A stretch of 64,000 nt of DNA from Vulcanimicrobiota bacterium (lineage in GTDB: Bacteria; Vulcanimicrobiota; Vulcanimicrobiia; Vulcanimicrobiales; Vulcanimicrobiaceae), in the NCBI GenBank assembly GCA_963833095.1, contig CAWHWQ010000002.1:1-64000 (forward strand), in the 5' to 3' direction. Under the pieces are notes generated by a model that was given only the letters and a program-made list of their open reading frames with translations, did not search any database and was not told the DNA's origin. The position numbers were made by a program, and so were the translations under genes. Positions 1 through 31,397 of the stretch are shown here, piece after piece (position 1 is the first letter of the stretch; every line of letters starts with the position of its first letter).

Positions 1-921
1 GGCTCGTGAGAATACCGAGGGCCGCAACCGCGTCTCGATTCTCATCGCCACGTCTAGCTCACTCGCTAGTTTTTCCTGAGTTACCGATGCGCGGTTCTTA
101 GCTTCGGAGGCGAAGCGCGCGACGTGACCGCCGACAACGGCGGGATCAAGGGTCGTCACATAGTCTCCGGCTTTTGAACCCTCGATGCTGCCTGCCGCAG
201 CACGCGTATCAGTGAGCATGTCACCACAAGCACGAGCTACCGGACTAGCGATCGAGAAGAAGAACTCCTCGAGTGACGCTCCCGCGTGGCTGGGATCGCG
301 TCTTTTTGCCGAGGAAAGTGTCATCACATCCTCTACCTTGGCGGTGAGCGTCGCCAGGGCATTCGCAAGAGCGGTGACCTTTTTATCAAGGATCCCGACG
401 GCAGAAGCCTCGTTATTGACGTTCATGATGCCGCTGATTTCGTTAAGGAGGCCTTTAGCCGGCTTCATCAGATCCGCCATCAAGGCTTGGCGAAGCACGA
501 GCATTGCCGGGCTTTTTTCCGATCGAGCTGACGGGACAACTCCCGACAAAAGCCATTTATTGCTTTAGTGAGCTTGCCGTCTTCGGCAAGGTAAGTCGTC
601 TCCAGCGCCTTAATTTGCTGCGCGTGATTTTCGCCTACGACCCCGAGACGGTCGACAACCGTTCTCGCAGCCGCGTCCATCTGATCTGTAAGATGCACAA
701 TTGCGGCTTCACTCCGCTGACTAATAAGGATGCGAAGGCCTATGTCAAGCGCACACTCGCACGTACCTAAGCGCGACTCCGCGGGAAGTTCGCGACATAC
801 TGAAATAGCAGCGGTTCTCGCACTTCAGTGTGGACACGAAAGGCCGTATGACTAAGTCGATTTTGGCCGTAAAGGCCAGAGCACCGTTGTCCGGCGTATG
901 AATGTCGATCCGATTCTTCAT
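1..921 (-). CDS. Coiled-coil protein with C-terminal PD-(D/E)XK-like motif (RmuC/DUF2130-like); runs off window, several apparent indels
   Basis: ATG at 921 behind GAGGAG. Joined frames read MKNRIDIH..EVREPLLFQY..ALDIGLRILISQ..HLTDQMDAAART..TYLAEDGKL..HAGASLEEFFF..SKAGDYV..RFASEAKNR..ELDVAM; GD...EAK resembles a nuclease-fold motif. Confidence 0.5.
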
Positions 922-926
922 CTTCT

Positions 927-1151
927 CCTCGGCAAATGTAGGCTTCAGTTGATAGAGGGAAGAGCGCCTCGGGACGCCCTGCTGAACAAAGCGATCACGA
1001 GTTGTTAGCGAAAGCGCTTCCCTCTTGGTTTTTCTGCCTTTGCCGAGGCATCCGCTGATCAAAATAGCGGCACTGTTACGGTTTGATCGTCAGTCCCGGC
1101 GCCCGTGTTTGCGAGACGCTCCACAGTGTCCGTTTGAGCTTCGGTCCTCAA
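927..1151 (-). promoter_or_regulatory. Structured 5' leader occluding the ribosome-binding site
   Basis: Nested inverted repeats 927-936/1039-1048 (CCTCGGCAAA/TTTGCCGAGG) and 954-962/1017-1025 (AGAGGGAAG/CTTCCCTCT); further hairpins at about 1052-1070 and 1132-1151. Confidence 0.45.
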
Positions 1152-1164
1152 ATGAGGTACGCGC

Positions 1165-1793
1165 TCATGGCTCAGCTAGCACATTGTCCGCAGTGCGCGC
1201 AACACGTTCTCGTCTCTGTTCGACAATGGCATCCACAATCGACCCCGTAACCTCATCCCACGAGATCTCCGTTTCCGATCCTAATCGACCGCGATCAAGG
1301 CCTGCATAGACCGCCTGTTTAACTGGCTGACGTAGATGTTGTCTTGCGGAGCCAATTTCTTCTCCACGACTTCAGTCAACGCACCCTGCCGCACTCGGAC
1401 GAGGAGGCGCAAGTTGTTCGGGTCGAGCGCGATGAGTCGAAGGACGTCGTCGACTGCTTTGCTTTGCACAGCGGTAGCGTTCTCCCATCGCACCACCGTC
1501 TTTTGACCAACGCCCAATGCCTCTTCTAGCTCCGTCTGCGAAAGCATCAGGGCCCGACGCAACGATTGTATTTCCTCACCGGTTAGCAGGCCCTCCGCGC
1601 GGCGCCGTGCATCAATGGCCCTTCTTGCGTGGACTCGACTCTGTTCATCAGTGAAGTACTCTTCGCCGCAGCTTTCGCACTTCATGAAACGGTCAGCCTT
1701 GATCGACAATAGCGTTCCATTAAGCAGAGCGGGGCGGTCCTCCACGACCTCGCGCGCCGTTCCAGTTTCACAATTAACGCATGGTTCGATCAT
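1165..1793 (-). CDS. mqsA: MqsA-family antitoxin (zinc ribbon + Xre HTH) with C-terminal extension
   Basis: CVNC...CESCGEEYF zinc ribbon, then LLTGEEIQSLRRALMLSQTELEEALGVGQKTVVRWE HTH. ORF stops at 1281 as given; a 1-nt shift extends it to the TGA at 1165. Confidence 0.8.
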
Positions 1794-2159
1794 AATATGT
1801 ATTCCGCTTAAAGCTAAGGATGAAGAGGAGTTTTGAAGATTCACCAGTTCCGACGACTTTTATTTTTACGTACACCTGCAAGCGTTGACTTGCGCGTCGT
1901 AGACGTCGAGTTCTCGCCAGGACGCTTATCCGAGTCGACGGTTTCAATAAACTGGCATTGGGAGCCGCCTAAGACCCGCGAGGGTCGTCCAATGACGTCC
2001 GGTGGATGGCCGAGGTCCAAACACCCGTCGAGGGCGACGCGAGTCACGCGTCGGGCTGAGGGATCGGCGGCAAGCTTCCGGACCTCCGCGGGGTCGTAGT
2101 ACGATTGGCCGGAATGGTTCAAGGGCGGGAAACTTCCGGCGATCGGATGGCGGTTCCAT
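1774..2159 (-). CDS. mqsR: MqsR-like mRNA interferase toxin (apparent indels)
   Basis: Joined frames give YDPAEVRKLA..FIETVDS..LDVYD..QVYVKIKV..LFILSFK, matching the MqsR pattern DVY..QVYLKI..IVSFK; lies directly upstream of and overlaps mqsA. Confidence 0.7.
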
Positions 2160-2164
2160 AGTCA

Positions 2165-2195
2165 GATGGTAGCAAATTGCTACCATCGCCGTCAA
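2165..2195 (-). promoter_or_regulatory. sigma70 promoter with overlapping palindromic operator (TA autoregulation); leaderless transcript likely
   Basis: TTGACG (2195-2190), 18-nt spacer, TACCAT (2171-2166), ATG 6 nt later; palindrome GATGGTAGCAA-A-TTGCTACCATC with perfect 11-bp arms at 2165-2187. Confidence 0.8.
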
Positions 2196-2355
2196 GGCCT
2201 GTGCCGGTGCTTGCTTGACTTGCTTGGCGTCGCGTTCGGGCGCTCAGCGCACCACGCAGCCTTTTCTTCGCGGAGCATGTTAGCGTTCTGGTCCCGCGCT
2301 CCGTCAGACGAGCGAGCAGAACTCAAACGTTCCGGCCGCACCCTAGGCAAGCTGC

Positions 2356-2734
2356 TCACGCTTCGTAGTCCGCGCACTCTGACTGCATTAACCGACGTGC
2401 CGCATGCAAAATCCGCATTCGTCTCTTCCGAAAAATTGTCGCGCAGCACATTGCCGGAGCCAGATCGCCAAGCGACGTGTTCGCGCCCTTGAACCACGGT
2501 TGCACGGCAAGAGGACCGCACGTTGCAGCGATCATGCTTGCGATACGATACGCAAAGCGCAGCCTGAGGCTCACGCTCCGGCCGGCGTTCGCCGGCAACC
2601 CACTGCGTTACACTTCGCTCGTTCTTTACGTTGCCAACGGTTCCGGTCACGACCACACCGGCAAGACCGACAAGTTTCTTCACGACGGTCCCAATCGGCA
2701 GTCGATAAGCGTCGATTTCGTGTGCGTCACTCAT
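2356..2734 (-). CDS. HTH / Xre-MbcA-ParS-like antitoxin-type protein (apparent indels)
   Basis: VVKKLVGLAG..NVKNERSVTQWVAGERRP..LRFAYRIASMI..VQPWFKGANTSLGDLAPA; the WF.G.N..L....P pattern is typical of the toxin-binding domain. Confidence 0.55.
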
Positions 2735-3167
2735 TGCTCGTCTCGCCGACACTCTACGCCTAATCGGATCCCCGCCCGGAATCAGTTCGTGGAGCGAGCG
2801 AACGAAGTCGTACATCGGGTCCGCGCCTTCCGTTCGCAAAACTTCAAGCATACTTCGATTGTCGAGGCCCGCGAGTTTCTCGCGGGCCACCGTTGCGAGG
2901 CGCTCGGCCTTGAAGATCCGGTTGAGGTAGATGGCGAGTTCGGCGACGCGATCAACATCGGCGGCGTAACGAATCGGTACCCCCACCGAAAGCCACTGCT
3001 CGATAGCCCGACGCCGCACACCAAAGAGTTGTCCGAGTTCTGCCGTGACAGCTGAAGACTTTTTGCACCGTAAACAGCGACCGTGCACCACGTCGGCGAA
3101 ACGCGCGCGCAAACGCCCGCGCCATCGCGTCCGGCGTAAGCCGAATGCGGAGCGCGGTGGCGCTCAA
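2735..3167 (-). CDS. HTH / Xre-MbcA-ParS-like antitoxin-type protein
   Basis: AELGQLFGVRRRAIEQWLSVGVP HTH followed by REKLAGLDNRSMLEVL; in frame with the downstream domain as sequenced, so boundaries are uncertain. Confidence 0.5.
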
Positions 3168-3171
3168 GTGT

Positions 3172-4510
3172 CTACGTCTTTGCATAAAGACTCTTTGGCT
3201 TAGTGAGGCTTGAGAGAGATCTGGCCAAGCCTCTTATTTCGGGATGCTTCAGGTTCAAGAGACGCGACATCAGTGCGGCGATATCGCGGCCGAACGGATC
3301 GTCTACGGCAGGCACGACCCGGACCCTCCCTCCCCTACGCCGCAACTCGAGCAACCCATCGTCTAGCAGATGGCGCACGGCGTTCTGTGCCTTCTGATAC
3401 CGAATTCCAAGAGCAGTAGCAAGTTGACCATAGGTAACGCTACCCGCGGCATGCACGAGCAGCAAACTTTGGCTTTTCCTATTTCTCTTGAACAACCATG
3501 GCTTTCGCGCTCCGGCTGCGTAGTTGATGCTTTTCTCGATCCCGCCATCGATCTGCACATTCCAAGTCGGAGCGTTAGAGAGCACAGCGATTTTTCGACC
3601 CAGCTCCGCGATCTCTTTAAACGCCGGATACGACGGGTCCAATGAGAACCAGCGCCATCTTCGCCCGTCCTGCGCAAACAATCGAACGAGCCCAATTCTC
3701 TGTAAGAGCCCAAGATCGCAATACACTGTGGCCTTGGTAAGACCGGTGGCCTTAATTAAATGGCTGTAGCTGCTAGGTCCGTTCGAGGCAAGAAGCGCGA
3801 TCAGCTTTGTTCTGGTTCGGGTTCCAAAAATGGTTGGCACTCGCTGGAATTGTACTTTCGGTTTAGGACTTGAAGCTTGCGCCAGCGACCCAATCTTCCG
3901 AAGTAACCGACAAAGCGCTCTGCACAGTTTCGTATTGCTATATTGGTATGTACCCTTCGATGCTTTGACAAGTCCATCTGCCAAAAGCCGTTCTACGACG
4001 GAATAAAAGTGGTTGCGATCGACGCCGGAACTCCGAATGATCTCTCCCGCCGTACAATGCTTGAGCATTGCCAACAGCACGGCCGTTCGTCCTTTGCTGC
4101 CGAATAGGGTGGCGAGTGCACCAGCCGGGCTTAACGCGTTTCCGGAGCTTGGGCGGTCGATGTGTGGACGCGAGAAGGATACGCGGTCTAGATACACTCG
4201 CAAGCGCTAGACAGAGCGCTCGTAGGTCCTTTGCCCAAGGGTGAGAGTCATTCAGAGATATGACTCTTCGCGTCCCTTTCTTCACGCTCGAGAGAACAAG
4301 CCCTGATCGCAGAAGCGGCCCCAGGAGCCTTTCGAATTTAGCGACCTCTGCGTTTCCCGCGCTCGCGCGAAGCTCGTAACTGTACATAGGCCCTGCAACT
4401 GCAAGCGTAGCGAGAACCCGTTCGCGCACCCCGCGACCGAATACCCACGGCATTCGGCACGATGAATCGCCCTCCTGAAGAACCTCGTATCGAATTTGCC
4501 CTCTCGGCAT
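3172..4510 (-). CDS. Protein with four tandem winged-helix domains (frameshift near 4200)
   Basis: Units begin PWVFGRGVRERVL, ATLFGSKGRTAVL, PTIFGTRTRTKLI and PWLFKRNRKSQSL, each followed by an HTH and L...GL[VL] wing; ORFs 3938-4510 and 3172-4203 joined. Confidence 0.65.
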
Positions 4511-4622
4511 CTGTCACCGCCTGGGAACTCACAACAATCCTGACTCTAGAATATTCAGCCGAATGCCACCAGTGCGACACAAAGATTTCGGATCAGCGCA
4601 AAATCCGTATGGCTCCATCTGT

Positions 4623-4690
4623 ATGACCCGACACGCATGTCGGGACACGCATGTCGGGACACGCATGTCGGGACACGCATGTCAGGTCAT
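4623..4690. repeat. Tandem 14-bp palindromic repeat x4
   Basis: GACACGCATGTCGG at 4630, 4644, 4658 and a partial copy at 4672; each holds GACA-N4-TGTC; array framed by ATGACC...GGTCAT. Confidence 0.95.
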
Positions 4691-4724
4691 CTGTGCGCTC
4701 GCGCGCCGAGCATGTTCCGCAATG

Positions 4725-4786
4725 TCCAAATTGGTCACGCTTCTCCAAATTGGTGACTCGTCTCCAAATTGGTGACTCGTCTCCAA
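4725..4786. repeat. Tandem 19-bp repeat x3 plus a partial copy
   Basis: TCCAAATTGGTCACGCTTC (4725), TCCAAATTGGTGACTCGTC (4744, 4763), TCCAA (4782); core CCAA-A-TTGG is palindromic. Confidence 0.95.
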
Positions 4787-4849
4787 GTCGTTCGCGCAAC
4801 GTCTAAAGTGTTGCAAAACTTGTGAAGACAGTCTAAACTGCATGTAATC

Positions 4850-5074
4850 GTGATTACCGACACTTCAAAGTGTTCAGCAGCCAGTGAAGAGCAGCAGCAC
4901 GCCGATAAGGATGCATTCCCACTCTCGGAAGCAGCTGCGCGGTTGGGGATCTCCCTGCGGGCGGCGCGGAATGCTGCGCGCAAGGGCGATCTCCCAGCAC
5001 TGCGCATCGGCCGGCGATTTTTCATCCTGCGCAAGCGCTTTGAAGAGCTAATCGGTAACACCAATAGAACATAG
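4850..5074 (+). CDS. Excisionase-like HTH DNA-binding protein
   Basis: FPLSEAAARLGISLRAARNAARKGDLPALRIGRRFFI is a typical Xis/HTH_17 pattern. Confidence 0.8.
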   Translation: MITDTSKCSAASEEQQHADKDAFPLSEAAARLGISLRAARNAARKGDLPALRIGRRFFILRKRFEELIGNTNRT

Positions 5075-5103
5075 CCCTCGGAATCCGGGGTCTTTTTCTT
5101 TTT
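5075..5103 (+). terminator. Probable intrinsic terminator
   Basis: GC hairpin CCCTCGGAATCCGGGG followed by TCTTTTTCTTTTT directly after the stop codon. Confidence 0.6.
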
Positions 5104-5150
5104 AGGAGATTTTTCAGGGAACCGAAGCAACTAGTCAATCGCATTTACCT

Positions 5151-5385
5151 CGGCCCGTCCTGAAATCAAGAAAGCCTCTGCGAGTGCAATCGCAACGGCT
5201 TTCAGGTGGGCCGGTACCGCGTCAACGCTAGTACGATGGGCGCGGAACTTCTAACCTGCTCTCAGGATACCATCCCGAGAGCTTGAGGGCAACATGTCCC
5301 TTCCGTATCGTTCAGCGTGCCTATGGCTGCACAACAGCAACGGGCACAAATCTCTTGAACTGGCTGGCGACGCTGGGACGGAGCC
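5151..5385 (+). ncRNA. Candidate structured RNA upstream of the transposase
   Basis: Stems 5151-5165/5200-5213, 5170-5176/5197-5203, 5258-5282, and nested 5302-5306/5378-5382, 5310-5314/5356-5360, 5317-5321/5343-5347. Confidence 0.35.
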
Positions 5386-5400
5386 GCGCGGTCTACACGG

Positions 5401-6959
5401 ATGAATCGCAGTAGCGGGGACCGCGAACGCAACAAGCCCGCTCACGCTATAGCGAGCACCAAGAGTGCGTCTGACTCCGATGCGCCAGAGATCGAGTTCC
5501 ATCGGCCTCGCGGCTGTTACACGAAGCTGCAGCGAGAAGGCCTTCAGCTTTCAGCATCAGCCGACATCCAACACTTAGCTGGCGGAACCTATACCATCGC
5601 CATACCCGGCGTCTTTACCTACGCGGTAGTCGTTCCCGAAGGCCGGTGCACATGCGATCGCTATCGTACAGCGCGGCCCAGGATTTGGTGTGAGCATGTT
5701 TGGGCGATATTCTATTTCCTCGATCCTCCGACCCAAGATGAATTCCAGATTCCAGAACATGGGGCGGCCCTTGCGCCGGCAATTGACGCTTCTCCGGAAA
5801 GAGGTATGTCAGCAGCGGCGTTGCGCGCAGTCGACTTAGCATCCATACCGATCGGCGGATGGACGAAGTTTAGGTCAGCATATGAAAAGGCGATTCAGGG
5901 TGAGTTCGGTGATGTTATGGATCTCTTCCTTATAGTTGTAAGGCAATACGCAGGAGATAGCCTTTGGAAACCCCCTGGCGAAGAAAAGCGCGGCCGACAC
6001 TCATATCCGCTGTGGCTCATGCTGTTTGCACACTTCTTGCACACCTTCAACAATCTGACGCTGCGCGGTACACAGGGCCTCCTTGTGTTCCTTGCGCGAG
6101 TGGGATACCTTGACGCTCACGCCACGCCGGCTTTTGCAGCCATAGGAGCATTCATTAGAAGCTCTTCTACGAGTCTGATCATCAATGACCTGATGTACCT
6201 GTTTGCATCCCCATTCAGAAGCAGAACGAAGCTACGCCTCGGCGCAGACGGCACCGGATGGAGTCAAGCAAGTACGGAGATCACCGTAAAGAGCACCGAG
6301 ACAAGAAAGAGGAAGCTAGAGAGCATGTTTGGTGGCGCACGGTATTCATCTCAGACGTCGATCAGCTCTTCGTAGTGAGCGCCTGGGTTACAAACGAGGA
6401 TATTGGGGAAGGGCGAATACTCAAAAGCCTACTACCCGGGCTCGTCGATCGCGGGTGGGAAATCGGACCGTTTCTTCTTGATGCCGGTTTTGATGACACG
6501 TTACTTCGCGATCAGCTGATCGAGATGGGCATTGAACCTTTTGTTCCCTACAGAGATGGCCGAGTCAATGCAATACCGCGAAAACACCGCAACAAGGTCA
6601 AGCATCCGGATAGGCTAGAGGAGTGTTTTCACGCGTTTAATCACTACGACGCTCAATTCAAGCCGGTGTTCCGATTTAGAGTCAAGGAAGAGTGCTGTAT
6701 TGCCTCTGTTAAGACGCGATTCTCGTCCTACGTTCGATCAGATTGCGAAGTCGGAGCGCGGAACGAGATCCTCATGATGTTCTGTTGTAATAATCTGCGA
6801 ATCCTAAATATTGGGCTTTCGGTCCTAGATGCGATCAAGAAGGCGGAATCACGCGCAGGCGACGGTCGCGCTCGCGCTATCGGATCTCGCTCGCGCGGGT
6901 TCCGCATCGCGCCGAACAATCAACTAAGCCTTATGGATCTGAACGTAGCTTCGCCATAA
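5401..6959 (+). mobile_element. DDE transposase (IS4/IS5-like fold) with N-terminal SWIM zinc finger; frameshift near 6260
   Basis: CTC..CEH SWIM motif; GADGTG (D1), LLDAGFD (D2), FRFRVKEE..VKTRF (E with R/K signature), RNEIL..CNNLR. Confidence 0.75.
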
Positions 6960-7058
6960 CGCGATCGATTAGTCCTGCGGTGGCGCGTGGCGCGACACGC
7001 CTGCGCCGTCTGCCACCGCCGCTTAAATCAGTACCGGCCGCGCTAGATGTTTCGCTTG

Positions 7059-7868
7059 CTATTTCTCCTTGCTCTTCCCTAAGTACGGAGATCCATCGAC
7101 GTTATAGATAGGCATGCCATCGGTGAGGTTCGTTTTACCGTCTAGACCCCGCAGCATTTCTCTCCATTTAGAAACATGCACAAGAGCCTCTTCCAACGAA
7201 CGCGTATGATGCCCCTCGGCAACGGCTAAGCCAATGATCGACATACCGCTTGCTGTCGAAATTCTCAAGTCTTTGTCACCAGGAGCGCGGGCTGCGATCA
7301 GATATCGTTGAGTCTCTTGTCGTATTTCGTTCTCGCAATCGGATCGTAGCTTGGAGATCTGCTCCCGTGCCAAGTCAAGGACCCGTTGCCCAAATCCAAC
7401 GGCCTCCTCACGTGTTGGAATCTTCCCCTTATGAATAACCTTATTGCGAAAGTTTACGTCCTTGATGGAAAGCAGCGAGGGAGCCTCGCCATAATGAGCT
7501 GACCATGAAGCGATGAAAGCCCCTAATTGCCTCTCAGAGAGGTCGTTCATGGGCTTCCAGGTCTCATCAAAGAGAGCCGGCTTGCCCGGTTGCATCTTCA
7601 GGAGCAACACGCGCATTGCGAACTCACAGAAGCGTTCAAGACAGGATGCAAATGAGGTTACTGCTTCCCTGTAGTATCCATCATTTATGGCGTTTGCCCC
7701 TATTTCGAAGAGCACCTCAAACTTCTGTGCCTGGAGGATCGTAACGGTTTTATGCCCTTTGGAACAGGTAAATTCATAGCGACCTGAATCCTGATAGCCA
7801 ACGAGTGTAAAGCCACTCGGCACCCCATCTTGTATCTGGCATTCCATGCACGGGATCATCAACAGCAT
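7059..7868 (-). CDS. Zinc-ribbon + HEPN-like protein
   Basis: CMEC...CSKGH N-terminus; GYYREAVTSFASCLERFCE helix; FRNKVIH (R-X4-H) motif. Confidence 0.6.
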   Translation of the reverse strand: MLLMIPCMECQIQDGVPSGFTLVGYQDSGRYEFTCSKGHKTVTILQAQKFEVLFEIGANAINDGYYREAVTSFASCLERFCEFAMRVLLLKMQPGKPALFDETWKPMNDLSERQLGAFIASWSAHYGEAPSLLSIKDVNFRNKVIHKGKIPTREEAVGFGQRVLDLAREQISKLRSDCENEIRQETQRYLIAARAPGDKDLRISTASGMSIIGLAVAEGHHTRSLEEALVHVSKWREMLRGLDGKTNLTDGMPIYNVDGSPYLGKSKEK

Positions 7869-7953
7869 AGAGGCTGCCTCATTCCATCAGATTTTGAACC
7901 AAACTGACCGCGACGGAAGTCCCGATTCGGCACCAGCGACAGTTCGCCGTTAT

Positions 7954-10095
7954 CTAGCGTTCAAGATTTTGAACCGAAAGCGCGGACAGAGCGGCATCGG
8001 TGACGAGGGTGGGGCCGATGCCGGCGCCCTTTCCTAATCGCGGATCGTCGAGGCGTAAATAGGCGCGCCATGAGCCGTCGTCGGATTTCTCTACGACGCC
8101 GGTGACCTTCTTGTTGGCACGCAGTTTCTCGATGTTGCGTGCAAGTAACCGCTGGTGTCGCGGAAGCATGCCCAAGGCTAGTAAACTGGCGGGAAGCCAT
8201 CCGGTGGGACGTTGCCGCTCGAGCTCGCACAGGAGCTCGGCGACTTCTTTGGGCAACTTGCAGGCTGGTGGCGGCCCTTCTTCACCGCGCCCTTTGGCAT
8301 TTTCGAAGGCATCGATGGTTCTGCTCGACGCGTCCATCAACACCGAGTCGAACCCGTCATACTCGGATGGGTCCAGCCGAAGGCCGTTCCGGACGTATCT
8401 TTCCAGATATGCCAACTCGTCAACGCTCTGCACTATCGGCATATTGATTATCTGCTTGCGCCGCTCGACGTATTCGATGAACTGCGCCGGCATCGTTAGT
8501 ACGTCAACGATGGTTTCCAGGTCGTCCACGGACACCGTCCACGCTGGCCGAGACGTCCGCTGCAAATATGTGCGAGCCGTATTCACGATGTGCCCCAACT
8601 GTTCAAGGGTCAGCGAGACGAGGTTGAACTTCAAATGTTCGCTGCGCCGGACCTCGACAGTCTCGGCAGCATTCTGGAATCGCGCGACTTGCGTGCTTTC
8701 GACATAGTCCATGGCGCGGTTGGTTTGGCGATGCGCCTTGAGCACCAACTCTTCGAGATCCGCCTGCACGCGGGATTCGACGCCGGCGCGCGCCGCTTCG
8801 GCGAAATCGCCGCTCTTCACTTCGACGAGAAAGACATGACCAGCGAAAACGACGAGGATATCTACGTCGCCTTCGAATCCCGATCCCTTGTACTTCATGT
8901 CGGCATAGACTTGAGCACCGGGCAGCGCCTTCGTGAACAGTTCTACTCCCCGCTTTACGGCGTACGCCGAACGGTGCCGCTGATACGATTCCCATTGCGG
9001 CGCACTTTTCAGCGTGCGTTCGAGCAACGATTGCAAGGAAGGCAGCAAGAGACTAGGACTCGGGAGCGCGTACGATCCTCCAAATTGAACGAGCGGCCTG
9101 TTCTTGAGCGGACTGAAGGCTTGTATCTGCCAGTAGTCGGTGAGTCCTGATCGATCTAGGGAAAACGCTCGGAGAATGCGCTGTACGGTATCGGCGGCCA
9201 AACCGGTTTCGGTGACGAGATCCTCGACGGCCGGAGCGATGGAATGTCCGGTGCGCGTCGATATCCATAGCAAGAGCGAAACTTGGAGATCGAAATCTCC
9301 ATGCGCGCCGTCGAATTGTTCGAAAAGCAGACGATGGCGCTCATCTGAAACGGGTCGGTTTTTTCTGATGTTGTGAAAGTCGCTGATGACCACGGCAACC
9401 TGCTCTTGGCCGGCCATCGCGACATCGCGTATGCGCTCGTCATATGCATCCTCCAGGACAAGAGCTTCGCCGGGAGTGAATCCGAGCGCGTTTCTTATTG
9501 CGTCCGAGAACGGCTGGAACAGCGCGCGCATCAGCGCCTTCTGTTGGTGATCGTAACGCTCGCCACGAACGCCTTGCTCGAATGCAAGAATGCTCGCAAG
9601 CGCGTCGCGAAACTCCAGATCGGGCGGCGTTGAGCCATCTGCAGGTAGTTCGGGAAGCACGTATTGGACTGCCGCCTGCATCTGCGCGTCAAGGGTGTCG
9701 ACGATTTCCTTCGCGGCATCCAGATCTACAACGGGCTCGATACCGTGGTCGCCCTGCTTCGCGAGGAGAAGAGCGAGGTGCTCGATGACCGCGTAGGACT
9801 GGGACATTTCCTTACCGGCAAGCTGCGGCGCGAGATGGTGAAGGTTGAAGACGAACCCAAGAACGGCGAGAGGGTCGAAGGGCTTGCCCAATTCCAAAAT
9901 CCGCTCGGAAGCGCATCGCATCTCACTAGGGACTGAGGCGCGCCAGTCAGCCAGCGCCTGCCGCATAGCCGCGAACTGGCCGGGGTCCGCCTTGTTGCGG
10001 AGACGGATATTCTTCCCTTGCTCGATGGCGATGGGGCCGTAGTTGAGTCGTGCGCGCGACTTGTTGGACTTTTTCTTCTTTCGTTTCTTGCTCAT
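7954..10095 (-). CDS. Large protein with PD-(D/E)XK (NERD-like) nuclease domain
   Basis: 713-aa ORF with GDVDILVVFAGHVFLVEVKS motif, basic N-terminus, and TATAAT at 10134-10129 upstream. Confidence 0.65.
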   Translation of the reverse strand: MSKKRKKKKSNKSRARLNYGPIAIEQGKNIRLRNKADPGQFAAMRQALADWRASVPSEMRCASERILELGKPFDPLAVLGFVFNLHHLAPQLAGKEMSQSYAVIEHLALLLAKQGDHGIEPVVDLDAAKEIVDTLDAQMQAAVQYVLPELPADGSTPPDLEFRDALASILAFEQGVRGERYDHQQKALMRALFQPFSDAIRNALGFTPGEALVLEDAYDERIRDVAMAGQEQVAVVISDFHNIRKNRPVSDERHRLLFEQFDGAHGDFDLQVSLLLWISTRTGHSIAPAVEDLVTETGLAADTVQRILRAFSLDRSGLTDYWQIQAFSPLKNRPLVQFGGSYALPSPSLLLPSLQSLLERTLKSAPQWESYQRHRSAYAVKRGVELFTKALPGAQVYADMKYKGSGFEGDVDILVVFAGHVFLVEVKSGDFAEAARAGVESRVQADLEELVLKAHRQTNRAMDYVESTQVARFQNAAETVEVRRSEHLKFNLVSLTLEQLGHIVNTARTYLQRTSRPAWTVSVDDLETIVDVLTMPAQFIEYVERRKQIINMPIVQSVDELAYLERYVRNGLRLDPSEYDGFDSVLMDASSRTIDAFENAKGRGEEGPPPACKLPKEVAELLCELERQRPTGWLPASLLALGMLPRHQRLLARNIEKLRANKKVTGVVEKSDDGSWRAYLRLDDPRLGKGAGIGPTLVTDAALSALSVQNLER

Positions 10096-10384
10096 CGAGT
10101 AGGGTCACAGCTGAGGACTTGCTTGGCTATTATACCCCACTCGGTTGCTTGCTAACGGATCGCGCGCCGGCCAACAGTCGTCGTAGCTCACCGGCCCGCA
10201 CTTTGTCATCGGTGCCTAGAACCGCCGTTCCCCTCGCGGGACCGCTAAGTAAGGCCCACCGTGCCACGTGCGCTTTTGGTCCGGGCGGCCGCGCGTCGCG
10301 GCAAACCACTTCTGGGTAGGGTAGCCCATTGTGCCACCCCTATGGCACGAATTCTGTTCAAACTGGTGGGATGAGGTGACCCGC

Positions 10385-10693
10385 ATGAAATTCGAAATCA
10401 AGGGCCTTGACCGCCTTCAACGCGAGCTTCGCGAAGCACAGGAAGCGCTAAAAGCACTAGATGGGCGGCTCGGCAGCATCAATTTCAATCCGCACGACCC
10501 TGACAGCGTCGGCGCGGCAATCTCCGAGGTCGGCACCATGATCGACGAGCGCGTTGCGCCCTGGCAGAGTAACGCACTCGTTCAGCGACTAGCGGCCGGC
10601 CTCAAAGAGCGCTACGCCGCCGGAATACGCGACCGCGCTCGGAAGGCACTCGAAGGCAGTCAGTGCGACGTGTCGCCGATCGGGGAGAAGTGA
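10385..10693 (+). CDS. Small helical hypothetical protein
   Basis: ATG behind GAGGTG; MKFEIKGLDRLQRELREAQEALKALDG..FNPHDPDS; first gene of a tightly packed + strand trio. Confidence 0.7.
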   Translation: MKFEIKGLDRLQRELREAQEALKALDGRLGSINFNPHDPDSVGAAISEVGTMIDERVAPWQSNALVQRLAAGLKERYAAGIRDRARKALEGSQCDVSPIGEK

Positions 10694-10697
10694 TGTT

Positions 10698-11431
10698 ATG
10701 TCACGATTCGTGCGCCTAGAGATCCACGATCCTTTCGTCACGCTCGCAACGACGCTTAGACGCTTACGGCCGGCAATCGAACGCGCCTACTACGCGGCGT
10801 TCGCTGCGTCGGATGCTGCGAACGCGGCACTCAAAGAATATCAGTGGGCAACCTTCGACGACTCGATGGTCCACGACCTCATCGGTGAGATGCTTCCGCG
10901 AATGGAACGAAGCGATGTCGATCCGGAGGTGCTCTACGCAGGTGCTATCGCTGAGGATAGCCATTGCGATATGCAGTCCACTATTGTCGTCCTGTTTGCC
11001 GACGACCTTCTGCAACGATTCGCATCGAAGGTGCTGGGGAAGAAGATCGGCCTCCACGGCTATGGCCCCCTTTACCGCGGCGTTCACTTGACATCGTTGC
11101 TGCGGGCCACGACGAACTGTGTCCGGCACGTCTCCGAGTGGAAGACTACCCATTCCCATACCGCGAGTTGAAAGATGCCGAGAGCAACGACGAGCGCAAA
11201 GCCATTCAAAGTATTCTTGTGCTGCAGCAAGCATACGGTCTCGGTAAACACGAGCGCGTTCGCGACTTCGTTTCATGGCATACGGCGTCACCATCGATGG
11301 CCTATACGGCACGCATCCGCCGGACTACCAACGCTTCGAGGACGCGCTCCTTGAAGGCGCTAGGGACATCGCGATCACAGCTGGACCGGAGGCAGAGGAG
11401 AGCCTGGCAAGAGTCCTCACGGCGAACCTAA
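10698..11431 (+). CDS. Hypothetical protein, possibly HEPN-like (apparent indels)
   Basis: ORF 10698-11171 continues in another frame to about 11431; contains LLRATTNCVRHVSEW. Confidence 0.5.
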
Positions 11432-11452
11432 CGCTGTGACGAACTAAGGACG

Positions 11453-12650
11453 ATGGCTAGCGACGCGCCTGAACTCGGTGCGGTGATCGACGCGCTGCGG
11501 CGACGCCGTAGCACGTGTATATACTGCGATCGCCCACCTGCGACGTGGGAACACATCGTGCCCGAAGCCGTCGGCGGTAAGCTCACGGCCTTCGTGCTAT
11601 GCGAGGTGCATCGACTGATCGAAGCTGATCACCGTTTCGCCGAGCGTTTTGCGCCGATGACGCATCTCTTGCAGGTGCAGCGCCAAGATGGTCGCGTTGG
11701 TGCGGCGATGATGCTCGAGAAGGCTGATGGCTCGGGCGGGCGCGGCTATTCGACGACGGGACTAATGGAGATCCCCACCGATGTGATCAAGGACGACGAA
11801 GGACGTTTCGTGCGCGTCATCGACGAGATTACGCGCGTTCCCGAAGATCCGCAAGCAGATCGCCGGGCAATCGGCCCGACCACGTGGAGCCTGCGGCGAT
11901 TTCCACTCGTGCCGGAAACGCCCGAACCTCGTGGCGGATTATGGGTTCGGCCCTCAAACGTGGCCCAGCATCGTGAAGATAGCGCTGCACTTTGTGGCGA
12001 GCTTCGAAACGGGCGACGAGCCGCCGCGCGAACTCGTCGATCGACTCCAAGCGAATCATTTACGGGCAACCATCCGTCCCGGACTGCGTTACCGTTACGG
12101 CGATCGAGGGACCATACTTTACGGCGGGGCTCGACAGTGCGCACGAGGTCGCATGCTTTGAGGGGGACGGTTACGCGTCGGTCGCGATTTCGCTTTTCGG
12201 CGTCTTTCGTTGCCTGGTACGCCTTGACGGCGTTCGATGTGCGCGAACACTACGCTACGTGCAACGCCTCGCGGGCGAAGCCACCGGCGCTAACGTCGGA
12301 GGATCTCGTTTACCTCCCGTGGCGACAGGCGAACGACGAGGAACAAGCGCAGTGGCTCGAGGGAGTCAGAGAACGGGTTACGGCGCTCATTGACCGTCGG
12401 ATCAACGTCTATTACGACAAGAAGGTGCGCGAAGCGCTCCCGAAAGCCTACGGGGAGTTTTCGCGGCACGCATTCGACCATAAGAGTCCGATCGAGGGCA
12501 TCTCGGTGTACCTGCGCGCGGAGCATCGAGCAGACGATTCCTAACCATGACGATCTGGAGATTGTTCTGCGCGAGGCGCTTGCAAAGCCGGACCTGCTCG
12601 ACAAGATCCTCAAAGATTCTGTGATCGTTGGGCGCGCAAAATTAAAATGA
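11453..12650 (+). CDS. HNH endonuclease domain protein (apparent indels)
   Basis: CIYC..TWEHIVPEAVGG..LCEVH N-terminal HNH-type motif; frames join through to the stop at 12650. Confidence 0.65.
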
Positions 12651-13874
12651 CGGCTTCTCGTGTCCGGGCCGCGGACCGAGCGGCCATTCGCCGGACTCAT
12701 CCGATTTCTGCTCGCGTAGGGCGTCCATCTCGTCCACCATCTTCTGTAGCTCCGGACCGATTTCGTCTTCAACTTCATCGAACGGGCGGCGATTCGCGGA
12801 TCGGCAATAAATTGGTCGCGAGGCACGTATCCGCGTGCCCATACGTCATTGATCGGCGAACCCGGCAGTTCGATTGGGTCTTGGCATACGCGTCGTAGTG
12901 CCGTTGCTTCTCTTCTTCGCTACGCCTCTCGGAGTCAGACCGCCACGCAACGCGAGTGCGAGATCTGCTTGCAATGCGTTTCCGGTCATAAACACGGAAT
13001 TCGACGTCACCGCTGGCCAAAGCCGTTGGTGGAGGATGTCGTTTGAAGCGAAACCGTGGCCGAACGGCACGTAGAAGAGGTATTGCAGATCGATCAGATT
13101 CGTCTCGCGCTGTGGGATGAGCTTCGCCCAGCGATGCGGCCACGAACGCAAGGAAAATGCGCGCGATGCTCGCCGCATAGGGCGCGTAGCGGGGAAACGT
13201 GACGCCGCGCCCGACGGCGTGCGCAATCGTGATCATTACGATCTCCGGCGGCACGATGCGAAGAAGGGCAAACAGCGCCGCTAAGAGAGCCGACAGCCGC
13301 TCCAGGTCGCGACTGCCGAGCAGCTCGTCGGTGCGTGCGATCGCCTCGTCGATGCTGCGCACGCGCCCGATGAATCTCTTCGTGAAGGCCACCCAGCCGG
13401 CGTTAAACCGCTCAATGTCGATTATGTCGATCTCGTCGCGCCATAGCTGCGCTTTCTCTGGTCTGAGACAGAAAACTCACCATTGGACCAGCGCTGCCGC
13501 CACAACTTCTGCTCAAGGGTTCCATCGTAGACAAGTTTACGGCCGTCGGGCGACGAGAAGACGTTTCGGGCGCCCATGTCAACCGGAATCTGCCCGTTCA
13601 TCGGAACGTGCTTCCCGAAAAGGCTCTCAAGCACGAGCTTGCGGTACGTTATTGGCGTCGTGAGGTGCATGCGACCCATGCGTCGAGCGAGGTCTCGTAC
13701 GCGTTGCTCGGCCGTGGATCGTTGCGAGCGCTTGGGCTTACTGTAGAGGTCGGCGATGATCTCCCGCGTGAGAGTTGGCACGCAGATCACATCAAAGGCG
13801 TGGCCCATCTCTTCAAGCTCCTCATGCGTGAGCGTTTGAATGACGGACTTATCGAAGACGACTGCGGGAAACAC
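12642..13874 (-). CDS. PIN-like domain protein (apparent indels)
   Basis: VVFDKSVIQ, TREIIADL, NLIDLQYLFYVPF and FASNDILH supply a PIN-like D/E/D/D set across joined frames. Confidence 0.5.
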
Positions 13875-13885
13875 TATCTAGTGGG

Positions 13886-15080
13886 TCATGTGGAGCGCTT
13901 TGATAACGGCCGGATAACATTGTCAACGTATTGCCGTGGGTCCGGCTTGCGAAAATAGTCCGGAACGTACGGCTCAGCGAGACCGACCAATTCGCTCGCG
14001 GCGAGGCCGAGGGCAGCACCAACAGCGGCTCCAGGCGCGCCACTAGCCGTATGGCCGATGAAGCCGCCTGCAGCAGCCGCTAGGGTACTCGCTCCCTCGC
14101 CCAGAGCGTCGAATATCGCGATGCGGGCTCGGCGATACCACGCGCCGTCATTTGGGTCTAGACCCTTGTCTAATGCGTTCACGAACTCCGCGCCGAGGGC
14201 CGGCCCATTCGTTGGATCGTCGTTCGCCCGCCATAGCCATTTCTGGAAAGCTCTTGTTGCAGGGTGCTTCCGGATTTCAATGCAAGTTGACTGGAGCGAC
14301 GACGTTCCTAAGGAGCAGCGTGCGCATCGACGGAACGCTGCCCTCAGCGTAGACAGATTCCGCTGCTACCGTAGCGGCAGCGCTCCGCGCAATATCGGCG
14401 GCGATTCTCTCTACAGCTTGCCAGGTTCCGTCCGTTTCGAAGATGTCGTATTCATTTTTTAGTACTACCGACGTCGCATAAAGATCACGTGCGGCTTGGC
14501 GAGCAGCATTGGTAACCCGAGTGTCGGTTGCGTTGATAAACGCGTCTTTGCCGGGGACGCGATCACCAAAGACGCCCCGGTCGGCGAACTGCATCGCAAC
14601 ATCGACAGCTTCTTCCGCACCCAATGCGTCGGTCGCCGTCGTTCGTTTAATGAATGCATCGATCAACTGCGCCTTCAATCCCTTATCCATACCCGGAAAG
14701 CAAATGGTGAGATCACGATCGGCGAGCGATCCCGGATCGCGCTGCGCGTTCACGGGGTCCGGCATTCCAAAAACGACGCTGCCTAATGAGCCAACGTCCG
14801 CGGTCCACACAACAAACTCCAGACCGCCGTCTTCGAGCAGTTGAAGTAGAGCCGGCGGCTGAAAGTAATCCAAAAGAATGGGAAGTATGAACGCCCGCCC
14901 GCTTGCCTTTACAGCGACTCTGGGTGAAATAACCAAGGCTTCCCCTAGAGCGGCAAGCTCTGGGAGATATTGGGGCCGCAGTTCTGAATATTCGATGCGA
15001 TTTGCGCGACCGATGAGACGTTCACTAAGATCGTCGAGGCCCGCAGTGTAAATGACGTCAGGTAGCGTTCGTTGCGCCAT
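13886..15080 (-). CDS. Hypothetical protein with C-terminal glycine-zipper hydrophobic hairpin (frameshift near 14280)
   Basis: ORFs 14277-15098 and 13886-14182 joined; ends AAAAGGFIGHTASGAPGAAVGAALGLAASELVG. Confidence 0.6.
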
Positions 15081-15086
15081 GCGCAT

Positions 15087-15115
15087 ATTATAGATCAATC
15101 TAAACGGCGAGGCAA
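15087..15115 (-). promoter_or_regulatory. sigma70 promoter, likely leaderless
   Basis: TTGCCT (15115-15110), 17-nt spacer, TATAAT (15092-15087), ATG at 15080. Confidence 0.7.
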
Positions 15116-15133
15116 AAAAGTTCGACGAACGGT

Positions 15134-15823
15134 TTACCCTCCACTTGTTCTCTCGTAGCGCCGGGCAAGCTCGACTGTTAGATCACGTAGGCGACGGCGG
15201 GGAAAGAACGGTGACTCTCCGGAAAGATCCATCTCCGCCAAAATGACAAGAGCCTCCGTTTCCTCGTCGAGACCGTGAACTCTTAGCCCTTGCGTAACGT
15301 CGGTGAGGATACTCATCACACGCGCCGACGCTTCGGCGCTCGCTGGGGCCTTCCGAATCAGTTCCGCCTTTGCCGTCATGCCAGCGAATGCTTTACGAAG
15401 AAGCTCAACGATGTGCGGGTTCGGATCATACGGCGGAGATCTCCACTTCTCCGTCTCAAGCCCGTACGCTTCGCTGATCGCAAGCGCCGCTGCGGCGGAT
15501 CGCCCAATGCCTTGTACGCAATTAATAAATAGCGTGTCGATTGCAGGCGCGACTCGGCGCACAAACCGTAGAATCCGATCAGCCTGTGAAGACGTCATCG
15601 GCGCAAAATATTGATCGACGCGCGAGACAACAGCATCACCTTCATCTTCAGGTATAGCATCATCAGCTCGGATGATGATCCGGCCCAAGTACGTCGGCCG
15701 ATGTTGCAATTTCGGCGCAGCCTTCTTCCACCGCGTGCCGACGAAGGAAATCACGGCAAACGGACGATCCGAGACGAATTCGCTTGCCGCAGCCCTGTCG
15801 CCGACGATAATCTGGCACAACAT
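15134..15823 (-). CDS. Protein-tyrosine/dual-specificity phosphatase-like protein
   Basis: INCVQGIGRSAA (CX5R) motif, acidic loop ADD, and PNP motif; extra C-terminal helical region. Confidence 0.75.
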   Translation of the reverse strand: MLCQIIVGDRAAASEFVSDRPFAVISFVGTRWKKAAPKLQHRPTYLGRIIIRADDAIPEDEGDAVVSRVDQYFAPMTSSQADRILRFVRRVAPAIDTLFINCVQGIGRSAAAALAISEAYGLETEKWRSPPYDPNPHIVELLRKAFAGMTAKAELIRKAPASAEASARVMSILTDVTQGLRVHGLDEETEALVILAEMDLSGESPFFPRRRLRDLTVELARRYERTSGG

Positions 15824-15930
15824 CTTATTCGGCCACCGTCTTCACTCGATTTACACCCAGACGGTATCACTCCTTGCCAGTGCCCGGAGCCTCCGACCCA
15901 AACAAATCGACGTTACAGAACCTTTCTGAC

Positions 15931-16004
15931 TGGCTGGGGCCGCAGTGTATCAGAAAACGCGGAGACGTATTTTAAATACGGTACTGGCCAATGTATTAAA
16001 TACA
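15931..16004. repeat. Probable island boundary: tRNA-3'-like 15-mer plus AT-rich palindromes
   Basis: Minus strand CTGCGGCCCCAGCCA (15931-15945); palindromes CGTATTT-T-AAATACG (15966-15980) and TGTATT-A-AATACA (15992-16004). Confidence 0.45.
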
Positions 16005-16044
16005 CCGTCCCCGGCGGACCCCCGCTTGTTCGCTGCGCCCCGCG

Positions 16045-19000
<2,956 letters not shown>

Positions 19001-19038
19001 AGCAGGCCCCGAATACGTCGCAAGCGCACGCTCCACCT

Positions 19039-19818
19039 ATGGAGCCGGCCGAACATCCGTACCAAGGCGTGCAGCGTGAACTGCGCGGCACTGCGTTCGC
19101 ATCGATCCGCTACGAACGCACGACCGCAAGCACCAACGATGATGCCGCCGCACTCCTTGGCGATCCGGCCGTTGCGGGCATGACCATTGTCGCCGAAGAG
19201 CAGACCAAAGGGATGGGACGCAGAGGCCGGTCCTGGACCGCATCGCCGGGCAGCTCGCTCCTTTTGACCACACTCCCGCCCGGACCCATGGCCGCAGCGA
19301 GCCTCTGGATCGTGCCGTTCGGGGTTGCGATCTGCGTGCGCCGCGCACTTCGCACGAACGCCGTTCGCAGCGAGCTTCATTGGCCCAACGATCTCCTCAC
19401 CGGCGGAAAAAAAATCGCCGGCATTCTGTGTGTCTCACGCGTCGTCGGCGACCGCGCATGGGTTGCCGCCGGCGTCGGCATCAACGTGCATCGCCCGCCG
19501 GGTGCCGACGAAGCAATCTCGCCCCCGCCCGCTTTCTGCGATGACGTCAATCCGGCGATCACCCGCGCCGCGTTGTTGCGCGATCTTCTTCTCAACTACG
19601 ACCTGTGGCGCGACATGCTCGAGATGCCGCAACGCATCGCGCGTCTGTGGGAGCGGATGGCCGGCCTCCCCAAGCGCTATCGCATCCTAAAGGATAGCGC
19701 CACGGAACCGATCGACGTCACCGCGATCGGTCTCGCTAACGGCGGCGGCTTGGTTGTGCGGCACGACGATGGCCGAAAGGAAACGATTGCGCTCGCCGAT
19801 GCGCGAGCGCTCCGCTAA
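19039..19818 (+). CDS. birA: Biotin--protein ligase (no N-terminal HTH)
   Basis: STND, AEEQTKGMGRRGRSW, WPNDL, KIAGIL, GVGIN. Confidence 0.93.
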   Translation: MEPAEHPYQGVQRELRGTAFASIRYERTTASTNDDAAALLGDPAVAGMTIVAEEQTKGMGRRGRSWTASPGSSLLLTTLPPGPMAAASLWIVPFGVAICVRRALRTNAVRSELHWPNDLLTGGKKIAGILCVSRVVGDRAWVAAGVGINVHRPPGADEAISPPPAFCDDVNPAITRAALLRDLLLNYDLWRDMLEMPQRIARLWERMAGLPKRYRILKDSATEPIDVTAIGLANGGGLVVRHDDGRKETIALADARALR

Positions 19819-19841
19819 CCCTTCGACAGGCTCAGGGTGAC
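19819..19841. repeat. Single REP-like unit between convergent genes
   Basis: CCCTTCGACAGGCTCAGGGTGAC shares TCGAC..GCTC.GG.TGAC with the arm at 61991-62026. Confidence 0.55.
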
Positions 19842-19845
19842 GGGG

Positions 19846-26712: not shown

Positions 26713-27075
26713 ATGATCGTCGGAATCGGCATCGACCTTGCCGAGGTGGAACGCTATCGCTTCGACGAGCGCGCGCTGGCGTGGTTCGCGCGCAAAGTGT
26801 ACACCGAAGAAGAAATGGCCTACGCACTGCGCAAGCGCCACTGGCCCGAGCGTCTGGCCGGATTCTTCGCAGCGAAGGAAGCGGCGCGAAAAGCCTTCGG
26901 GCATGCCATCCCGTGGCGGCAAGTGGGTGTTTCGCACGAACGCAGCGGCAAACCGATCGTTCGTTTCTACGGCGCGGCTGAGCATCTGCCGGCCTCGCGC
27001 TCGCTCTCATCGATACACTTGACGATCACGCATTCGGCGACGACCGCTGCGGCCGTCGTCATACTAGAACGATGA
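26713..27075 (+). CDS. acpS: Holo-ACP synthase
   Basis: MIVGIGIDL, FAAKEAARKA, SGKP, LTITHS. Confidence 0.95.
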   Translation: MIVGIGIDLAEVERYRFDERALAWFARKVYTEEEMAYALRKRHWPERLAGFFAAKEAARKAFGHAIPWRQVGVSHERSGKPIVRFYGAAEHLPASRSLSSIHLTITHSATTAAAVVILER

Positions 27076-31038: not shown

Positions 31039-31381
31039 GCTCGGGCGATGCCGATCTGGATCGGGTACCCGTCCGGATCGCTGATCACCGCGATGCGCCC
31101 GAACGCCTCATCGTAGGGATACTTGCAGAACGGGCACGCGCAGCGTGCGCGCAGTCGGCGACGAACCGGTCGACGTTGTCCACGGTGAAGCCGAGTTGCA
31201 GCGAACCCGGGCCGCACCGCCAGCAGTTCGCTCTCCGGATGCAATCCAAGCGTGACGCCGTCGGCCAGTTCGAACTCGACCCAATGCGGGCGAGCGATCG
31301 GTGAGCTGCTTGCAGGCCGATGCACGTCTTCGATAGAAAATCGCGCGAGCGCGCAAGATCGGAACAGACGAGCATCACCAT
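31035..31381 (-). CDS. VOC/glyoxalase family protein (apparent indels)
   Basis: [44 protein letters not shown]. Confidence 0.8.
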
Positions 31382-31397
31382 GGCAAACACCGATGGG

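Follow-up and report, generated by a model that had tools for sequence, protein, structure and literature searches.

Transposases of the insertion sequence (IS) superfamily IS4/IS5, for which Tn5/IS50 is the model, have an RNase-H-type catalytic core (DDE_Tnp_1, PF01609) with the residues D, D and E and a Y/F-R-E-K signature. Control by a repressor and an excisionase (Xis)-like protein is normally tied to integrases, and the attachment site of Tn7-type transposons, attTn7, lies downstream of glmS. In TnGBS-type integrative and conjugative elements (ICEs), according to two reports, a DDE transposase replaces the integrase (PMC3942029, PMC4701971), and this enzyme is placed there in a Mutator/IS256-related group rather than in DDE_Tnp_1 (PMC3942029). 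Here we describe a locus at positions 3172-6959 of a 64,000-nucleotide stretch of DNA from a Vulcanimicrobiota bacterium (the window), with which contig C2 begins, in an assembly of 8 contigs and 2.8 Mb (80.7% complete). The locus holds a gene for a protein with four winged helix-turn-helix (wHTH) units, a gene for a small protein with an HTH_17 domain, and a transposase that joins a SWIM-like finger to a DDE core. The parts of the literature open to our search yielded no paper on a prokaryotic SWIM-bearing transposase of IS4/IS5 type, on wHTH or Xis-like partners of such an enzyme, or on targeting of ssb. We lean towards reading the locus as one copy of a lineage-restricted three-gene module that is now a resident, probably immobilised, passenger of a genomic island and not its driver.

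The module is recognised by its recurrence. Twenty-three transposase loci from relatives and from a metagenome, including that of the window (WIN), were scanned with phmmer; one of them (L049, genome G228) is unpublished, and the counts stand without it. A multi-wHTH gene is divergent from the transposase gene in 10 of the 23 (WIN, L032, L033, L035, L039, L042, L048, L050, L051 and L052), at distances of 0.5-5.9 kb, and the 2.8-kb gap in L035 corresponds to an IS21 insertion. No multi-wHTH gene is present within the DNA read in eight loci (L016-L020 and L054-L056), and five (L002, L021, L047, L049 and L053) are too short for a call. Directly upstream of the transposase gene and on its strand, an HTH_17 gene is found in four of the 23 loci (WIN, L048, L050 and L051), with alignment over the whole HTH; the L050 orthologue also gives a weak match to Tn916 Xis (E 0.0025). 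The transposases of L048, L050 and L051 are only ~25% identical to that of the window. The gene order is thereby shared with further members of the bacterial family to which the window belongs. Because gene order and orientation are kept among enzymes this divergent, the trio is a recurrent module and not a product of chance, which is what came of tabulating the neighbours of homologues, a step proposed in a first-pass annotation made from the window's sequence alone. Likewise, because three other genomes have an orthologue of the HTH_17 gene immediately 5' of the transposase gene, this gene belongs with the transposase rather than with the tyrosine integrases of contig C1 (see below).

The transposase is read from two plus-strand frames, an N-terminal one at 5401-6264 and a C-terminal one at 6264-6959, both assigned by alignment. 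The underlying open reading frames (ORFs), 5401-6375 and 6258-6959, meet between GTGWS and SSKY when compared with the intact homologues P0002, P0003 and P0004, relative to which one base is missing at ~6264. Identities to these homologues are 61%, 57% and 90%, respectively; the N-terminal frame was assigned by its identity to P0002. A finger of the form CxCx11CxH (C83-x-C85-x11-C97-x-H99; 5647-5697) precedes the first catalytic Asp (ADGTG; 6244-6258), the second Asp (LLDAGFDD; 6474-6497) and the segment F-x2-R-x3-E-x6-K (6669-6713). Across 25 aligned family members ADGTG, LLDAGFDD and FRFRVKEECCIASVK are conserved, and they supply D, D, E and the Y/F-R-E-K signature; the finger is conserved in most relatives and degenerate in G325, G326 and G338. 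The SWIM-fused DDE transposase of the first-pass annotation is thus present, in two frames.

Judged by these motifs, the window enzyme is a member of the IS4/IS5 superfamily. The C-terminal frame matches the IS5-type model NF033579 (7.4e-12) and PF01609 (2.4e-4); on PF01609 this frame alone reaches 21.3 bits against a gathering cut-off of 23, and intact P0002 reaches 52.4. Every cut-off for an IS family in NCBIfam is missed: the best case is IS5_2 (NF033579, cut-off 140 bits), on which P0002 scores 78.8 bits and the two window frames 24.4 and 45.3. Further differences from known IS4/IS5 elements are the additional N-terminal finger domain of ~200 amino acids, the two accessory DNA-binding genes, the lack of terminal inverted repeats and of a second copy for the window element, and, among its relatives, a fixed insertion site and passenger genes. 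For the SWIM family PF04434 (cut-off 19.6 bits), the window frame gives no match and P0003 only 12.9 bits (E 0.083). The 17 nearest clusters in the ESM Atlas (score ~0.97) combine DDE_Tnp_1 with SWIM, and PF04434 is annotated on 61-85% of their members, which we treat as a lead only. These clusters, commonest in Acidobacteriota, have the same two-domain architecture and were catalogued automatically; compared as proteins alone, their members differ in being ~410-420 amino acids long and ~24-29% identical over the core. A sequence search of the PDB with the transposase gave no match. A back-translated pattern search of contigs from species-representative genomes (with P0002 and alignment A2) gave none either, and a scan of metagenomes recovered a single element, in two short loci with 253 nt of upstream sequence. 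Sampled across the phylum, the transposase turned up in 35 of 296 genomes belonging to the same bacterial family as the window, whereas the 105 genomes drawn from 20 other families had none.

In locus L032 (G107; 9026-10369), the SWIM and DDE parts occupy separate ORFs that divide near residue 200, and P0004 also begins there. By analogy with IS1 or IS3, a natural form with two ORFs, one for a finger protein and one for the core, is possible.

The four-wHTH gene likewise extends over two frames, which overlap on the minus strand and between them encode four winged-helix units of ~92 amino acids each, as scored with a hidden Markov model (HMM) of the unit built for this work. Unit 1 (about 4178-4459; amino acids 19-112) lies in ORF 3938-4510 and was placed by this model and by alignment with the four-unit proteins of relatives. 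That ORF continues out of frame over the start of ORF 3172-4203, with the frameshift zone at ~4190-4215. ORF 3172-4203 contains units 2-4 (about 3868-4122, 3565-3846 and 3232-3510; amino acids 29-113, 121-214 and 233-325) and matches the Pfam families TrmB (2e-15), MarR_2 (6.8e-9) and HVO_A0114 (4.5e-7). An AlphaFold model of this 343-residue frame has three H-H-H-beta-beta-H units (mean pLDDT 79.5), and its best Foldseek matches are tandem winged-helix proteins (TFIIIC tauB, RPC62, SarS, SelB and ScpB) and repressors of the MarR and ArsR types. A PDB sequence search with the wHTH protein returned only matches with E>0.09.

The HTH_17 gene (4850-5074, plus strand) encodes a MerR/excisionase-type DNA-binding protein of 74 amino acids. 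It resembles the HTH_17 (MerR-like) excisionases, or recombination directionality factors, in being small and in having a single HTH_17 domain (PF12728, 1e-8; 35.7 bits against a cut-off of 27). It differs from them in remaining under the cut-off of the 'excise' model TIGR01764 (26.4 bits against 28.8), and in having a DDE transposase as its partner, with no tyrosine or serine recombinase adjacent. The earlier designation as Xis-like is therefore sound for the domain and does not extend to the excisionase family or to a recombinase partner.

The wHTH and HTH_17 genes diverge across a spacer of 340 nucleotides (nt) that contains two tandem arrays, as the first-pass annotation had described, except that the wHTH gene needs two frames. 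The first array, at 4630-4685, has 3.9 copies of the 14-bp unit GACACGCATGTCGG (Tandem Repeats Finder, 100% matches, score 108), and the second, at 4725-4786, has 3.3 copies of the 19-bp unit TCCAAATTGGTGACTCGTC (93% matches, score 103); both are given on the plus strand. A scan with the 14-bp motif, allowing up to 2 mismatches, returned 5 matches against 1.23 expected. Neither motif occurs elsewhere in the window or in the 2.8-Mb assembly.

Behind the HTH_17 gene, a hairpin followed by a T-run (5076-5100, plus strand) is only suggestive of a terminator. The hairpin that the first-pass annotation named as a terminator is present; the consensus scan found 6 sites in the region against 3.7 expected and so was not above chance. 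The leader between the HTH_17 and transposase genes measures 326 nt. Its portion 5100-5400 folds better than shuffled sequences on both strands (z of -2.8 for plus and -3.4 for minus), which supports the stem-rich leader of the earlier description; a structured RNA is not supported, for there is no strand preference and no match to the covariance models of Rfam 15 in 5075-5400. Within 3000-7300, the only Rfam match is a sub-threshold small RNA (3093-3297; 18.4 bits against 138). The leader contains a near-perfect hairpin at 5258-5282, GCTCTCAGGAT-ACC-ATCCCGAGAGC, followed by GAGGG and then the start codon (ATG) of a short upstream ORF (the whole at 5258-5303, plus strand, aligned pairwise with L002). 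Metagenome locus L002, the only homologous locus that extends to this hairpin, has kept block 5269-5303, which comprises the right arm, GAGGG and the first codons. The upstream ORF has 36 codons (5294-5404, plus strand), and its TGA overlaps the transposase ATG (ATGA); at the equivalent place L002 has an ORF of 76 codons that ends at its own transposase start.

Farther upstream, a hairpin-forming block of 54 nt (L016 13028-13081 and L017 12846-12899) is 87% conserved between G325 and G326. It lies ~1.3 kb upstream of the transposase operon of each, in DNA that has otherwise diverged. For the upstream ORF of G325 (149 amino acids, with a CxC...CxH motif of its own), no relative could be detected in L002, L017 or the window.

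In the assembly, the four-wHTH and transposase genes are each split by one frameshift. Other genes are broken as well: uvrA (31085-34375, minus strand) is spread over at least three frames, which match UvrA residues 20-58, 248-626 and 735-961 (E down to 1e-136), and at 27072-28597 (plus strand) the YjeF_N and carbohydrate-kinase halves of an NAD(P)HX repair protein are separate ORFs, of which the kinase ORF matches profile positions 143-238 only. The latter split is probably a further frameshift. Of the sampled words, 44% were recovered in a public soil run (X1), in contigs that are short, of low depth and derived from a strain ~97% identical to that of the window, and one such contig reads GGA TGG AGC TCG AGC AAG TAC (GWSSSKY) in frame across the transposase break. 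We favour assembly error because these other genes are also split and because X1 reads in frame; both frameshifts are thus more likely to be errors of assembly than decay. We do not read the break as programmed frameshifting, because no slippery heptamer was seen there by eye and because it lies five residues past the first catalytic Asp. The assembly is seemingly rich in indel errors, and its frameshifted genes should not be read as pseudogenes. X1 gave no joints or circular junctions and no contig over 4674-5375, and is too sparse to judge excision or the arrays.

Transposon ends can be recognised in relatives. In 11 loci from at least seven genera, the transposase gene is convergent with ssb of the rpsF-ssb operon, at 260-340 nt from the transposase stop codon. 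An end lies just past the ssb stop in L048, L050, L051, L063, L019, L052, L053, L047 and L061. Of nine occupied loci that were aligned, seven have the tip CTGTCTCAC, CTG(T/A)CTCAC, 2 nt past the stop codon (counted as the pattern CTG[AT]CTC[AC]C), and in two the tip is degenerate. The tip is followed by two to four repeats of the GTGAAAT type, spaced 18-19 nt apart, and then by a terminator hairpin. We take the tip, CTGTCTCAC or CTGACTCAC, to begin like the end sequences of Tn5. Tip and repeats are absent from the empty ssb locus L058 (G307), and L061 (G346) retains the tip with a 90-nt relic of the transposase.

Locus L019 (G263) has two tips, at 1671 and 11073, inverted and 9.4 kb apart. They enclose 7 kb of passenger genes, including those for an extracytoplasmic function (ECF) sigma factor, an ArsR regulator and a hydrolase. 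At L019 1640-1710, 12 nt resembling the native sequence after ssb separate the left tip from a second copy of the right end (18/19 nt) that lies outside it; these abutting ends suggest a second, tandem insertion at one target. No clear target-site duplication accompanies the candidate ends of L019 or L033. From these sequences, the transposase of the ssb clade is, or recently was, that of a site-specific transposon, and the family of ssb-directed elements looks undescribed. It resembles Tn7 in having its end at a fixed distance past the stop codon of a housekeeping gene and in the repeated insertion at L019. It differs in having no genes like TnsA, TnsB, TnsC or TnsD, a transposase of another family and ssb as its target in place of glmS; the window copy is not at ssb.

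Candidates for further ends were rejected. The 26-nt inverted repeat around the G305 gene pair (L033 6700-6725 and 10607-10632, 81% complementary) is no better than other local pairs, and it shows no duplication and no second copy. Single tip matches at L050:10639, L033:164, L039:16580, L052:5174 and WIN:12361 are at chance level, with ~0.5 expected per locus; the site at L050:10639 is partly conserved in L048. Searches with each right end by blastn-short for a left end returned only noise, and the loci with wHTH and HTH_17 genes showed no left end within the 18-20 kb read of each.

Several observations weigh against reading the window locus as a copy of a three-gene transposon module. Multi-wHTH genes occur with no transposase in six well-flanked loci (L034, L037, L040, L041, L044 and L045), and in L032, L041 and L044 they sit beside the same conserved flank, with a transposase in L032 only; this shared flank suggests vertical descent of the wHTH gene. 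Two ends are seen in L019 alone, whose element has neither a multi-wHTH nor an HTH_17 gene, and therefore a location of these genes inside the transposon cannot be read from it. The arrays are not conserved in seven of eight control regions of relatives, the one exception being the IS21 insertion of L035. The window itself has no tip, no cluster of GTGAAAT-type repeats, no bracketing inverted repeat and no second copy, and its transposase is only ~25% identical to those of the ssb clade. The nearer relatives L002, L016 and L017 are also without ends, and the downstream flank of L002 differs from that of the window. The 19-bp array was considered as a transposon end akin to the 18-19-nt repeats of relatives and was discarded: weight-matrix hits were at shuffle level, with none in the array, and the two share their period only. 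Finally, selection estimates are of limited precision: for the transposase, dN/dS (the ratio of nonsynonymous to synonymous rates) spans 0.06-0.33, and for the wHTH gene it spans 0.12-0.20, with dS saturated and the values accordingly rough. By these rough values, both genes are under purifying selection.

The repeat cluster between the transposase and wHTH genes of L035 is the end of an inserted element. That element (L035 5960-8401, G166) is of IS21 type, with an IstA-like protein (rve and Mu-transposase C-terminal domains), IstB and AAAATGTACCACC repeats.

Since the window has no tips, repeats or bracketing repeats, mobility transfers to it from the ssb clade by homology only. In window 1-20000 a single tip match (WIN:12361) lies inside an ORF and is at chance level (~0.5 expected per 18 kb). 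The absence of clear terminal inverted repeats around the region, reported in the first-pass annotation, was confirmed, and comparison of occupied with empty loci, which that annotation had proposed, located ends at ssb in relatives and neither ends for the window copy nor a clear duplication. A larger claim can be made only tentatively, and we would not rely on it: that these loci form an undescribed, lineage-restricted family of DDE transposons which inserts 2 nt past ssb, much like Tn7 at glmS, and is governed by a switch of an HTH_17 Xis-like protein, co-transcribed with the transposase, and a divergent four-wHTH repressor that would read tandem operator arrays, the window copy being an off-site member with a complete switch. 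That the DDE element is a regulated one, as first proposed, agrees with the recurrence of the module and with the transposon ends of relatives, and is at odds with a window copy that is single and has no ends. We read the window copy as a probably immobilised passenger because it is single-copy, lies away from the ssb site, lacks recognisable ends and resides in an island with tyrosine integrases of its own.

A rival view, which we think unlikely, is that the module has been domesticated into a vertically inherited host cassette, for example for regulated DNA cleavage or rearrangement or for regulation of a defence island, in which the wHTH and HTH_17 proteins aim a transposase-derived protein. 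In its favour, every genome examined has a single full copy, as does the 2.8-Mb assembly of the window, and both large genes are under purifying selection. The rpsF-ssb neighbourhood is kept in at least seven genera, with nucleotide identities like those of the flanking genes. The family is also rare: 4 close relatives of the transposase were found among 5.8 billion clustered proteins, and among 1.84 billion representatives there are 524 relatives at E<=1e-3 and 15 at E<=1e-30, with no plasmid relatives found. Against domestication stands the patchiness of the family within a single genus, g77, in which the ssb flank was recovered from 32 of 44 genomes and a transposase adjoins ssb only in a minority. 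Relics exist, as do extra transposase fragments (in G334, G325 and G305), and the Tn5-like tips, the subterminal repeats and the abutting ends of L019 are traces of insertion for which a host gene would have no need.

The model of the first-pass annotation was a regulated, DDE-driven integrative element with ends farther out and with toxin-antitoxin (TA) and defence genes as cargo. TnGBS-type ICEs, as described in those reports, are a precedent for it, having a DDE enzyme at the edge of a cargo-bearing element; they differ in that no conjugation genes are among the Pfam matches of the window. The 7 kb of passenger genes between the L019 tips also favours the model, as does the low-GC island in which the window module sits, surrounded by ORFan and defence-like genes. 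This island takes up bases 1 to ~16,000 (52-60% G+C, mostly unassignable ORFs), and from 16,045 onwards DUF2252, enolase, NDK and other core genes follow at 60-65% G+C. Pfam scans of window 1-16000, which took ORFs of at least 70 amino acids, gave no match to relaxase, coupling-protein or type IV secretion families, and most ORFs had no match at all; the end of contig C1 likewise gave none to these three groups. No tRNA gene was found in the window or in C1:915-952.6 kb.

The island appears to continue on contig C1. Tyrosine recombinases are matched three times in the assembly and serine recombinases not at all, and neither type is found on contig C2; two of the three matches lie 8-13 kb from the right end of C1. 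There, C1:933000-952594 (L057, G000) encodes two tyrosine integrases of 370 and 463 amino acids, the longer with Arm-DNA-bind_4, together with a 242-residue protein carrying two HTH_17 domains, a fragment of a type I restriction R subunit and an antitoxin of the Xre/MbcA/ParS type in island-like DNA. In the closest relative, G015 (87% nucleotide identity), DUF2252 is linked across only ~7 kb to DNA syntenic with C1:907-924 kb, and in G014 the joining is the same and also encloses a 291-nt fragment of the C1 end. Therefore, the right end of C1 most likely adjoins the first base of the window. If joined, the variable island would measure at least 44 kb (28.7 kb on C1 and 16.0 kb on C2). No direct repeat resembling an attachment site was found between C1:923-926 kb and C2:15.5-16.2 kb.

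Because the island has its own tyrosine integrases, the TA and defence-like genes in it do not require a DDE driver. The claim that the DDE element moves these flanking genes is thus not upheld, and the model as a whole is improbable: window 1-20000 has no tips beyond the one chance-level match in an ORF, the island runs off the contig into C1 by synteny, with two tyrosine integrases and the two-domain HTH_17 protein, and no conjugation or mobilisation family was matched in its first 16 kb, where most ORFs had no match. A canonical integrase just left of the window, which the first-pass annotation had itself named as an alternative source of the Xis and the island, is largely borne out by the C1 synteny, with the reservation that the HTH_17 gene still goes with the transposase.

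It is very improbable that the locus is a replication module in which the four-wHTH protein is an initiator binding the arrays as iterons of an integrated plasmid-like element. The 14- and 19-bp tandem direct repeats do adjoin a multi-winged-helix gene, an arrangement that presumably resembles Rep/iteron origins. However, Pfam and NCBIfam searches returned no Rep family, no Rep initiator is among the Foldseek matches listed, and relatives that have retained the wHTH gene do not have the arrays. That unrelated genes came together by chance in a genomic junkyard is the least credible reading of all: the island is a mosaic of ORFans and HTH genes are common, yet the recurrence of order and orientation with transposases only ~25% identical already contradicts it.

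Other genes of the island may be recorded here. At 1281-2122 (minus strand), an antitoxin of the MqsA type (PF15731, 9.4e-12), with a 93-residue ORF lacking a Pfam match just upstream, is likely part of an MqsR/MqsA-like pair. A 713-residue ORF at 7954-10095 (minus strand) matches the anti-phage protein GapS1 weakly (E 9e-4, far under the cut-off). An ORF of 363 amino acids at 11453-12544 (plus strand) has an HNH_5-like motif at its N terminus and an unusual middle part rich in Arg and Ser, and in G197 a similar HNH-like gene adjoins the four-wHTH gene. Genome G028 (L056 7281-8023) has part of a transposase from the window's clade next to enolase, ~1 kb beyond the genes for tRNA-Met and tRNA-Glu; the window island also borders enolase, and DUF2252, in its case without a tRNA.

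For the module as we prefer to read it, a division of labour can be proposed. The transposase would cut and join at ends such as those of the ssb clade, and its finger domain may read the subterminal repeats. The HTH_17 protein would be produced along with the transposase and act as an accessory factor or a regulator, and the four-wHTH protein would be a repressor of the divergent control region. The 14-bp array of four units and the 19-bp array of three could be operators for the four-wHTH or the HTH_17 protein. The window copy is probably inert, and the island has ordinary integrases next door. If the module works in this way, it would place a DDE transposon under a control circuit of repressor and Xis-like protein. 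The relatives of the ssb clade would add a new example of insertion directed by a housekeeping gene, and such elements would be useful for learning how genomic islands accumulate at hot spots, and they would be candidate tools for site-specific insertion.

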